Positions 58,556 to 60,185 of a stretch of 64,000 nucleotides of DNA are shown here, one piece after another (position 1 is the stretch's first letter; each line of letters begins with the position of its first letter). The DNA is from Escherichia phage VpaE1_ev108: the sequence record LR597658, one strand, 5' to 3'. The notes under the pieces were generated by a model, which was not told where the DNA came from, made no database searches, and saw only the letters and a program-made list of their open reading frames with translations. A program made the position numbers and the translations under genes.

Positions 58556-58800
58556 GCTACTGCCATCCTTCCATACATTACCTTACCACACCTAACCATA
58601 CCTAACCAAACTACACCATACAATACCTTGTTAAAAGACCCTTTTAAAGACCTTTTAAAAAGGTAAGTCTCATTTTAATGTAGCTGAGACTAACTACCCA
58701 CACCAGACCCTACCTTACCACACCAGACCTCACCCTACCCCACCATACCGTATACTACCTCATTAAAAGACCCTGTTTAAAGACCTTTTAAAAAGGAGCC
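58556..58800. repeat. long direct repeat LR1 (~250 bp) with 70 bp core shared with LR2
   Basis: core 58631-58700 near-identical to 60023-60093; core motif AAGACCCTNTTTAAAGACCTTTTAAAAAGG present twice in LR1; CA-rich degenerate flanks. Confidence 0.7.
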
Positions 58801-58815
58801 TCCGAAGAGGCTGCC
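58790..58815 (-). terminator. intrinsic terminator (minus strand)
   Basis: minus-strand GCAGCCTC-ttcg-GAGGCTCC hairpin followed by TTTTTAAAAGG. Confidence 0.5.
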
Positions 58816-58823
58816 TAGTCAAC

Positions 58824-59264
58824 TTAGAAAGGTTTTCTACGTTGCTTGTTAATGTTAGCTTTCATAGCAGCTAAATGGTTTTGCTGTTCAATCAGTCGTG
58901 AACGTTCTTGATGACTAAGTGCCATAGTGTTCACATTCTCAATTGCTTGAGTGGCTTGCTTTAAAGCACGACCAATCTTACCAGACATTTTGCGTTTTGC
59001 AATAGTTGCTTGATGCTTAGGTTCAACCAAACGATAACCAACACCCATTGAAGCAACCAGATAAATCTTCTCTTCTTTAAGAAGTTTCTCAATAAACTTC
59101 TCAAGTCGGTTTAGACGTGTAAGTGCATAAGCCTTCATTTCATCTTCGTACTTAACAATGTCACCTTGATAAGTTGGCTTCACAATACCTAAGAAGGTGT
59201 CCATCTCGGAATGTGATACAGTGTCACCGTAACTAAACTTTGCTGCTAATGCTTTTGTATTCAT
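58824..59264 (-). CDS. hypothetical protein with basic C-terminus
   Basis: 146 aa ORF bracketed by LR1/LR2. Confidence 0.5.
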   Translation of the reverse strand: MNTKALAAKFSYGDTVSHSEMDTFLGIVKPTYQGDIVKYEDEMKAYALTRLNRLEKFIEKLLKEEKIYLVASMGVGYRLVEPKHQATIAKRKMSGKIGRALKQATQAIENVNTMALSHQERSRLIEQQNHLAAMKANINKQRRKPF

Positions 59265-59266
59265 AA

Positions 59267-59869
59267 TTAAACGTTACCTTCTGAAATAACTTCTACAGAA
59301 AAACGACCAAAGCGTGGACGCCAATCACCTACACCACAAAGGTTACCAGCATTTTCCAGAACCATCAGGAGTTCTTCTTTGGTAATTTGTTCTTCATCGA
59401 ACATCAAACCGAACTCTACAGACCAGTCACGGAAGATTGGACGGTAGCTCATAACTCGTGCTGTACCAATCTTAACAGACTTAGCATAGATAAAGTCTGG
59501 GTTCTTAGCAAGTTCTTGTGGGTTTGCTGGACAGTTCTTGATAGTCATCGGGAAGACTACATCTGTCAGCATAATGGCTCGGTCAATTACCTTACCAAGT
59601 TTGTTGAGTTTTGCACCAGACTTGATGCAAGCCTCAATCATCTCACCGTTCATAACAAAACCTAGCTGCTCATCGTAGTAACAAGAAGTTACCAGTTGGC
59701 TTTCTGCTAAGAGCGCATAGTCTTCGTCAGTCTTTTTACGTTTACTGGACAGAGACTTGTGATACTTCGTCAGAGGGTTTAGTGGGTCTGACAGCGTATC
59801 TGCGTGGCTCAGGAAAGGACGAGTACCAGTGATTTTGATATTTAACAGTTTCATAGCATTTAGCTCCAC
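59267..59869 (-). CDS. hypothetical protein
   Basis: 200 aa ORF bracketed by LR1/LR2. Confidence 0.5.
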
Positions 59870-59946
59870 ACTTTAGTTGATTGTTAAGTTGTTTGTAAAG
59901 AACCCTCAACAGAAGACTCTTTAGAAACTTGGTAGATTTTTAACGT

Positions 59947-60185
59947 GGCTACTACCATCCACCCATACTTTACCTAACCAAGCCGAACATCACACAACCA
60001 GACCGAGCCGCACCCCGCCTTATTAAAAGACCCTCTTTAAAGACCTTTTAAAAAGGTAAGTCTCATTTTAATGTAGCTGAGACTAACTACCCATACCCTA
60101 CTTTACCTTACCGTACAGTACTTTACCCGACCACACCGGACAATACTTAACCCTACCTCACCCGACCGGACATCACTTAAAAACC
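59947..60185. repeat. long direct repeat LR2
   Basis: GGCTACTACCATCC ... core 60023-60093 matching LR1; CA/CG-rich degenerate flanks. Confidence 0.7.

Follow-up and report, generated by a model that had tools for sequence, protein, structure and literature searches.

VIPR systems (the name stands for Viral Interference Programmable Repeat), described in 2026, are phage-encoded systems for the RNA-guided silencing of DNA (bioRxiv 10.64898/2026.04.26.720920, 10.64898/2026.04.26.720927). They combine a minimal RAMP protein, Vipr, which has an RRM core, a G-loop and a thumb, with a vap accessory gene and guide RNAs termed vrRNAs, each consisting of 9-16 YNNGG repeats with a conserved GGY and a hypervariable NN dinucleotide, followed by a 3′ tail with a hairpin and a pseudoknot (bioRxiv 10.64898/2026.04.26.720920,.720927); the authors' set comprises 41 vrRNAs. 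In phage SUSP1, which was studied by small-RNA sequencing, pull-down, GFP and plaque assays, the vrRNAs are ∼100 nt long and co-purify with Vipr, and the guides are mostly aimed at a satellite phage of E. coli (bioRxiv 10.64898/2026.04.26.720920,.720927). Here we report that region 58539-60267, on the minus strand of a 64,000-nucleotide stretch of Escherichia phage VpaE1_ev108 (sequence record LR597658; the whole stretch analysed is called the window below), is almost certainly a type II VIPR locus, complete and belonging to the SUSP1 clade, set by the authors at >90% identity to SUSP1 Vipr (bioRxiv 10.64898/2026.04.26.720920,.720927), in a Felix O1-like phage.

The original prediction, made from the letters of the window, had seen at this place two genes of unknown function bracketed by long direct repeats, and had suggested a homology search of both proteins; it is this search that named them. 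The 195-aa product of the upstream gene, vipr, is identical at 193 of 195 positions to chain D of PDB 36pp, ‘SUSP1 Vipr protein’ (E=1e-128), and the profile of its family, an unnamed, widespread family of ∼190 aa, matched one solved structure, again PDB 36pp (E=3e-80). The published RNA and DNA contacts are all kept in the window protein (H17, K33, R39, E71, M72, K82, K88, R138, C173, D177, W178 and R179), and its AlphaFold model has a predicted local distance difference test score (pLDDT) of 95. The product of the downstream gene, vap1, is identical at 144 of 146 positions to that of the vipr-adjacent gene of SUSP1. Both open reading frames (ORFs) are present where they had been placed, at 58824-59264 and 59267-59869, with the qualification that vipr probably starts at ATG 59854 rather than at GTG 59869, the first codon of the 200-aa ORF. 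Pfam holds no family for either enclosed protein, PHROGs places both in families of ‘unknown function’ only, and a word-indexed homologue search with vap1 returned Felix O1-like copies only. The single-sequence model of the vap1 product is all-helical and of low confidence (pLDDT 69.5), and was therefore kept out of the fold search.

The window comes from a Felix O1-like myovirus with 92-94% identity to phages wV8, KhF3, Alf5 and the LF82P phages; no match of at least 99% to positions 44000-64000 was found among the records of the phage collection searched. Compared with the SUSP1 system (PDB 36pp), Vipr and vap1 are each 99% identical, the locus likewise lies between DNA ligase and the ORF87 homologue, and gene order and intergenic architecture match, as do the leaders, the internal tail, the two terminal tails and the YNNGG grammar; the predicted target class, an E. 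coli satellite with tape-measure and baseplate genes, is also the same. In contrast, the window carries two vrRNAs upstream and two downstream of the protein genes (2+2) where SUSP1 has 1+3, its four guide codes are all unlike those of SUSP1, one of them (U2) has no identified target, and the phage is a Felixounavirus whereas SUSP1 is a Suspvirus. The features that define type II VIPR loci in the SUSP1 clade and can be tested in sequence are all present in the window, and vrRNA expression and Vipr-mediated silencing would be expected in this phage by analogy with the 99%-identical, characterised system of SUSP1. The VIPR locus of the window is a near-identical copy of a published example. Its kind, clade and mechanism were made public in 2026, a Vipr of at least 90% identity is found in 117 phage records, and the locus is therefore already known.

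TRAP binds 11 (G/U)AG triplets with 2-3-nt spacers as an 11-mer ring. It resembles Vipr in placing one protein subunit on each short repeat of a single-stranded RNA at ∼5-nt spacing, but its ring is closed, its role is attenuation and its spacers are uninformative, whereas VIPR holds its information in the spacers (NN) and forms an open, helical filament. The preprints also draw a likeness to class 1 CRISPR-Cas (Cas7/RAMP), where a RAMP-fold protein polymerises on a guide RNA with periodic base flipping, and state that in both a conserved handle caps the variable guide (bioRxiv 10.64898/2026.04.26.720920,.720927). Unlike class 1 CRISPR-Cas, VIPR has no CRISPR array, no cas1 or cas2 and no spacer acquisition; its guide is read discontinuously, at 2 nt in every 5, with a 1-nt skip on the target and no protospacer-adjacent motif; and it is encoded by a lytic phage.

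Anatomy of the locus

Read along the gene strand, the locus would run from a promoter-like site through two vrRNA genes (U1 and U2), vipr and vap1 to a terminator-like hairpin and two further vrRNA genes (D1 and D2), all genes in this part of the window lying on the minus strand:

60240-60267, minus: sigma-70-like promoter TTGACA-16-TATACT upstream of the first vrRNA; 11/12 in a consensus scan, conserved in Felix O1
60171-60209, minus: leader A hairpin CATCACTTAAG...CTTAAGTGATG, directly 5′ of the first U1 repeat, read from the sequence
60091-60170, minus: vrRNA U1 guide tract, 16 YNNGG units; NN: CC CG GA AG TA AT CC GT CG AA AC AC AA AA AG AT
60059-60090, minus: U1 3′ tail, hairpin AGTCTCA/TGAGACT and pseudoknot GTAG/CTAC
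60018-60058, minus: leader B between U1 and U2, palindrome ACCTTTTTAAAAGGT with stem TTAAAAG/CTTTTAA; together with the U1 tail it forms the ∼75-bp core
59963-60017, minus: vrRNA U2 guide tract, 11 YNNGG units; NN: GG GC TC CT TG GA TC TT TA AA AT
59931-59962, minus: U2 terminal tail, hairpin GGTAG/CTACC and pseudoknot GTGG/CCAC, identical to the SUSP1 vrRNA1 tail
59267-59854, minus: vipr, 195 aa, RAMP-like protein predicted to bind one vrRNA repeat per protomer
58824-59264, minus: vap1, 146-aa accessory gene directly downstream of vipr
58797-58812, minus: terminator-like hairpin AGCCTCTTCGGAGGCT, then a T-run that is the start of the next leader B; directly after vap1, found by pattern scan
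58758-58796, minus: leader B ahead of vrRNA D1
58698-58757, minus: vrRNA D1 guide tract, 12 YNNGG units; NN: AG AC AT GG AG GA CT GT AA AG CT GT
58666-58697, minus: D1 3′ tail, identical to the U1 tail
58626-58665, minus: leader B ahead of vrRNA D2
58571-58625, minus: vrRNA D2 guide tract, 11 YNNGG units; NN: AT AT GT TT TA AT TA GT AA AA AT
58539-58570, minus: D2 terminal tail, hairpin GGCAG/CTGCC and pseudoknot AAGG/CCTT
58491-58519, minus: promoter-like TTGACA-17-TATTTT of the next gene (58063-58446), outside the system and marking its downstream end

The promoter-like site at 60240-60267 presumably drives the upstream array together with vipr and vap1. Leader A, which may be a processing site or a promoter, also opens the vrRNA series of SUSP1, wV8, Moogle and Felix O1, standing ahead of the first one, and the leader unit CAAGG ahead of D2 may be a twelfth repeat of that guide. 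At the downstream end, a 19-nt inverted repeat (58492-58538, 89% complementary), followed by a T-run, surrounds the -35 hexamer in the promoter-like site of gene 58063-58446; its possible roles are to terminate the downstream vrRNA array, to act as an operator, or to do the two together.

The two direct repeats of about 250 bp, with a near-identical core, that had been described around the two genes are borne out by alignment, with 79.6% identity over ∼211 bp (58537-58744 versus 59929-60137) and a core of ∼75 bp (58626-58700 versus 60018-60093) in which one 1-nt indel and one or two mismatches occur. The core holds ACCTTTTAAAAAGGT and the hairpin AGTCTCA..TGAGACT, correctly noted before and now recognised as stem 1 of the vrRNA tail. 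Each long repeat is made of two units of one repeat family (repeat family D1, with four copies at 58571, 58703, 59963 and 60116). The near-identical core is one vrRNA tail plus the leader of the next vrRNA, and the flanks that had been taken for CA-rich degenerate repeats are the reverse complement of the four vrRNA genes: they follow a strict 5-nt period, ACCNN on the plus strand and GGYNN/YNNGG on the gene strand, and across the 64 kb of the window, runs with at least 5 of 8 ACC in 5-nt register are confined to these two intergenic regions. It is the leader and tail common to all vrRNAs that account for the long direct repeats. Earlier records already carry the core with no explanation given: phage wV8 labels it ‘DR_4’ and phage KhF3 ‘possible binding site of StbAB’. 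The genome papers of Felix O1 and wV8 mention neither the repeat nor the enclosed genes.

The repeat grammar was assessed on 252 units from 20 vrRNAs of six phages. Position 1 was a pyrimidine in 100% of units, G1 and G2 were G in 78% and 98% respectively, and the NN positions carried 0.07-0.09 bit. For the tails, an ungapped alignment of five 32-nt sequence variants was used (two internal, two terminal and one satellite form), the window tails being identical to those of SUSP1. Compensatory changes were found in 9 of the 11 pairs of the hairpin and pseudoknot, and the covariation score was 0.558 as against 0.233 after shuffling (0/500 shuffles reached 0.558) and at most 0.152 in slid registers. 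Applied to the SUSP1 locus, our parser returned one upstream and three downstream vrRNAs, with 12 repeats in vrRNA1, which are the published values. No relevant Rfam match was obtained in 57500-61000 at E≤1, and our conclusion is that Rfam 15 holds no vrRNA family.

The G-quadruplex for which the G-rich strand was to be checked is superfluous, the GG being the protein-bound part of the repeat in published cryo-electron microscopy structures; it was dropped on finding GG runs only and on the identification of Vipr. Two further candidates, a TRAP-like or CsrA-like sponge RNA and a Rho utilisation site on the C-rich strand, were dropped once Vipr was identified.

Predicted targets in an E. coli satellite island

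In the SUSP1 system it has been shown experimentally that every pentamer is held by one Vipr protomer, which hides its GGY bases, and that the NN dinucleotides stay exposed and pair with double-stranded DNA that has the same dinucleotides spaced by one skipped base, forming a protein-held R-loop that blocks transcription; the window system would be expected to act likewise. Because the preprints give the satellite as having tape-measure and baseplate genes in common with the phage (bioRxiv 10.64898/2026.04.26.720920,.720927), complete E. coli genomes were searched with the phage tail genes. Of 5,426 such genomes, 474 have a ‘phage baseplate protein’ gene with 91-94% nucleotide identity to window gene 44937-45495 (plus strand), which adjoins the phage tape-measure gene; this level of identity suggests recent gene exchange between the satellite and its helper phage. 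The satellite island, which about one in ten complete E. coli genomes carries, is ∼11 kb long and inserted at yciI/tonB, yecN or ymdF; besides the baseplate gene it contains serine recombinases, an HNH gene and a tape-measure gene.

The NN codes of the guides were scanned against 11 variants of this island (L010-L020) with skips of 0-3. At skip 1, U1 matched at 30/32 positions, D1 at 21/24 and D2 at 20/22, as against per-locus bests of 18-20, 14-18 and 14-18, respectively, at skips 0, 2 and 3; U2 stayed at background, with 15/22 at skip 1 and 14-17 at the other skips. In 300 shuffles of the NN order, U1, D1 and D2 fell short of their observed scores every time (best shuffles 23, 20 and 19), and the NN matches on the satellites, found at skip 1 only (U1 94%, D1 87.5%, D2 91%), lie above the 80% taken as the threshold for a natural target. 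As a positive control, SUSP1 vrRNA2 gave 26/30 on the same satellites. No guide rose above background on the phage window itself (62-75% NN match), and SUSP1 vrRNAs 1, 3 and 4, together with a guide retained by Felix O1, gave background only on the 11 satellites, a small sample, Felix O1 being a phage that infects Salmonella. Three of the four window guides would accordingly be expected to silence the island, at the following predicted sites:

CCACGAGACAGATTTATGCCAGTACGCAAAACAACAAAGAATACTAT: predicted U1 target, within the ORF that opens the island's main gene row
ATGCTAGTATTGTATATATAAGTTAACAGAAT: predicted D2 target, -10/start region of the satellite promoter-like site
AGAACCAGAGGTAGTGACCTGTTAAACAGGCTGTT: predicted D1 target, unannotated intergenic stretch ∼1.1 kb upstream

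The ORF matched by U1, the first of the main gene row, encodes 184 aa and has no family; the skipped bases fall at wobble positions because the U1 target is in frame. The D2 match spans the -10 and start of a TTGACA-17-TAGTAT promoter-like site (10/12, extended -10) that lies ∼50-80 bp upstream of this ORF. The exact U1 target region is present at ≥99% identity in 20 and at ≥95% in 54 complete E. coli genomes.

Three satellite copies carry a vrRNA of their own, of 9-13 repeats, without any vipr gene (minus strand, counted on the reverse-complemented locus):

L013 10611-10665, minus: satellite-borne vrRNA
L014 8982-9026, minus: satellite-borne vrRNA
L018 9901-9965, minus: satellite-borne vrRNA

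Their tail, GGGTGGATTGTCGTAGCCACGTTAAAAATCGAC, differs from the phage terminal tail by compensatory changes, and a BLAST search of complete E. coli genomes with the tail/leader core gave no match. A leader A motif, AGTCTTTGAAA (window 60188-60198, minus strand), is found again within the spacer of the promoter-like site in the satellite, TTGACAtt-AGTCTTTGAAAatgc-TAGTAT (L015 6284-6294), and upstream of the satellite baseplate gene (L010 14960), with related motifs at three more window sites (27635, 29664 and 31667, plus strand); it could be a shared transcription or processing signal.

Cassette loss and the weighing of other explanations

The arrays vary between phages, with upstream and downstream vrRNAs numbering 1+3 in SUSP1, 2+1 in tootiki, 2+2 in wV8 and the window, and 2+3 in Moogle and vB_SflM_004. 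One guide may also occupy different places in the arrays: window D2 is the first downstream guide of tootiki, with one N different, and its first ten units are those of the first downstream guide of vB_SeBD_211. U1 of the window is identical to U1 of vB_SeBD_211. The original prediction regarded the repeats as recombination substrates from which the cassette could be deleted, and a pair of records of Felixounavirus LF82P5 provides the case. OZ035800.1 (85,898 bp) has the cassette and OZ035761.1 (84,499 bp) is 1,397 bp shorter at the locus, with 100% and 99.7% identity in the flanks on either side. The deletion junction is the ∼82-bp core (786-867 and 2183-2264 in locus L028; 786-867 in locus L029), so that vipr, vap1, U2 and D1 are gone while U1 and the last downstream guide are kept. 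LF82P3 (OZ035772.1 versus OZ035779.1) may be a similar pair. A cassette-less site is found in ∼106 phage records including Felix O1. Excision, as one half of what had been proposed, is therefore upheld by the LF82P5 deletion and these records, whereas for amplification, the other half, no duplicated-cassette variant was seen. A 48-aa hydrophobic ORF (phrog_22006; window 60274-60420, minus strand) lies between the ligase gene and the VIPR promoter-like site, and the ∼150-bp length classes of the cassette-less site exist because this ORF is present in some relatives and absent in Felix O1.

This deletion, the cassette-less records and the differing array sizes are what would be expected if the repeats were primarily recombination substrates for an excisable or amplifiable cassette, with no function of their own. 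We consider this very improbable, as it does not account for a selected internal grammar (Y always pyrimidine, G2 in 98%, NN free), for covarying tails or for NN codes that match satellite DNA far above chance, and no duplicated form of the cassette was seen. Because of the grammar, the tail covariation and the satellite matches, recombination is a consequence of the shared modules and not the purpose of the repeats; as such a by-product it shuffles the guides and now and then removes vipr-vap1. Inert duplicated spacers, which the original prediction had named as the outcome that would speak against it, are ruled out by the vrRNA identity, and structural variation is found at the locus in public genomes. 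It had also offered duplicated regulatory regions as a reading; what is found instead are guide-RNA genes whose conserved tail and following leader make up the core. T4-type phages reportedly carry PeSL elements (early promoter plus stem-loop; Arbiol et al. are said to have described them in 2010), which act as mobile cassettes that shuffle genes. The window modules resemble them in that stem-loop intergenic modules flank accessory genes and act as sites of deletion or shuffling, with LF82P5 as an example, and a control region of duplicated promoter/terminator modules of this sort would fit the terminator-like hairpin and T-run at 58797-58812, the CCTTTTT after the tail hairpins and the recurrence of AGTCTTTGAAA inside the satellite promoter-like site. 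However, PeSL contains no guide RNA and the window module, a vrRNA tail plus leader, contains no promoter: a consensus scan found no sigma-70-like promoter in the repeated core, and the sole strong promoter-like sites map beyond the repeats, to 60267 and 58519. The pentamer tract, the bulk of each repeat, has no role in a promoter/terminator model and fits a vrRNA exactly, and such control modules are in our view scarcely credible.

We give next to no credence to DNA-level protein-binding arrays, whether an iteron origin, an R-loop origin or the partition site hinted at by the StbAB annotation in KhF3. A promoter-like site followed by a G-rich non-template strand, the periodicity of the repeats and the vicinity of the replication genes ligase and polymerase would all suit them, yet the cassette has no ParM/ParR-like or initiator gene, about half of the relatives, Felix O1 among them, lack it and replicate all the same, and the binding of Vipr to RNA accounts exactly for a 5-nt period with free NN. 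An R-loop or iteron replication origin was dropped as a candidate once Vipr was identified, and a plasmid-type partition site (StbAB/ParMR parC) was rejected with the enclosed proteins being Vipr and vap1 and with no actin-like ATPase or ParR family match. A CRISPR-Cas array was discarded too, the locus having 5-nt units and four long repeats in place of ∼25-40-nt identical repeats with unique spacers, and no cas genes.

Several points weigh against the identification of the locus as a working VIPR system. The grammar is not perfect, AG or TG replacing GG in about a quarter of the units and a TAGTA unit in D1 having neither G. The D1 score of 21/24 is just one position above its best shuffle (20). 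U2 has no detectable target in the 11 satellite variants and nine phage loci, and exact NNx patterns of this guide, full and partial, are absent from viral contigs, as is the full pattern from genome contigs. Expression and processing of the four window vrRNAs are carried over from the small-RNA sequencing of SUSP1, transcription of the downstream array would have to pass the terminator-like hairpin at 58797-58812, and the literature on VIPR comprises two preprints from one laboratory.

Orphan guides and significance of the locus

All seven of the cassette-less sites that were read (7/7) contain orphan vrRNAs, one or two each. Felix O1, which has neither vipr nor vap1, keeps between its ligase gene and ORF87 the promoter-like site, leader A, nine repeats and the downstream terminal tail (L004 3633-3914). 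Some orphan guides still look live, as judged from their matches to the satellite. The second orphan of LF82P2, in essence the D2 guide of the window, scores 22/24 on the satellite promoter-like site when read as 12 repeats including the CAAGG unit, its tenth unit being TAAGG and not TAATG, and the orphan of fKMPT1 scores 21/24, in wobble phase, on a satellite dam methyltransferase gene. Neither ‘orphan’ nor ‘recombination’ occurs in the full text of the main preprint (bioRxiv 10.64898/2026.04.26.720920,.720927).

Elsewhere in this part of the window, an AP2/HNH homing-endonuclease ORF (62604-63119, minus strand) abuts a DNA polymerase ORF (63116-63988, minus strand); the annotation of phage Mushroom splits the polymerase into separate pieces around this endonuclease. 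GU169904.1 (Staphylococcus phage SA1) and MG065668.1 (Campylobacter phage A126) have ∼93% identity to this Felix O1-like region; both entries are probably mislabelled or contaminated.

With VIPR, a further way of recognising DNA by guide RNA has newly been reported, and it has been proposed as the ancestor of the CRISPR effector proteins. The spotting of such loci in ordinary phage genomes therefore matters for annotation, where public records still say ‘hypothetical protein’ and ‘DR_4’. The window brings no new principle. What is added here is a confirmation of the one-nucleotide-skip code, independent and by computation alone, on four guides that do not come from the SUSP1 genome itself, a target map in the E. 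coli satellite island (promoter-like site, first gene and upstream region), and the observation, undiscussed in the text of the main preprint, that shared guide modules drive the loss of vipr and vap1 and leave orphan guides behind.

Tentatively, and with more doubt than belief, we propose that the shared cores make the vipr-vap1 pair recombination-labile, that the orphans of vipr-less phages are either loaded in trans or serve as decoys, and that the cores are a route for guide swapping. In the first case, orphan vrRNAs would be loaded by the Vipr of co-infecting relatives, as the vrRNAs of vipr-less satellites must be; in the second, they would soak up the Vipr of a competitor. The exchange of guides between phages through the cores would replace the missing spacer-acquisition machinery. 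If this proposal is true, vipr-less Felix O1-like phages with intact, satellite-matching orphans may be represented by perhaps 100 or more public genomes.

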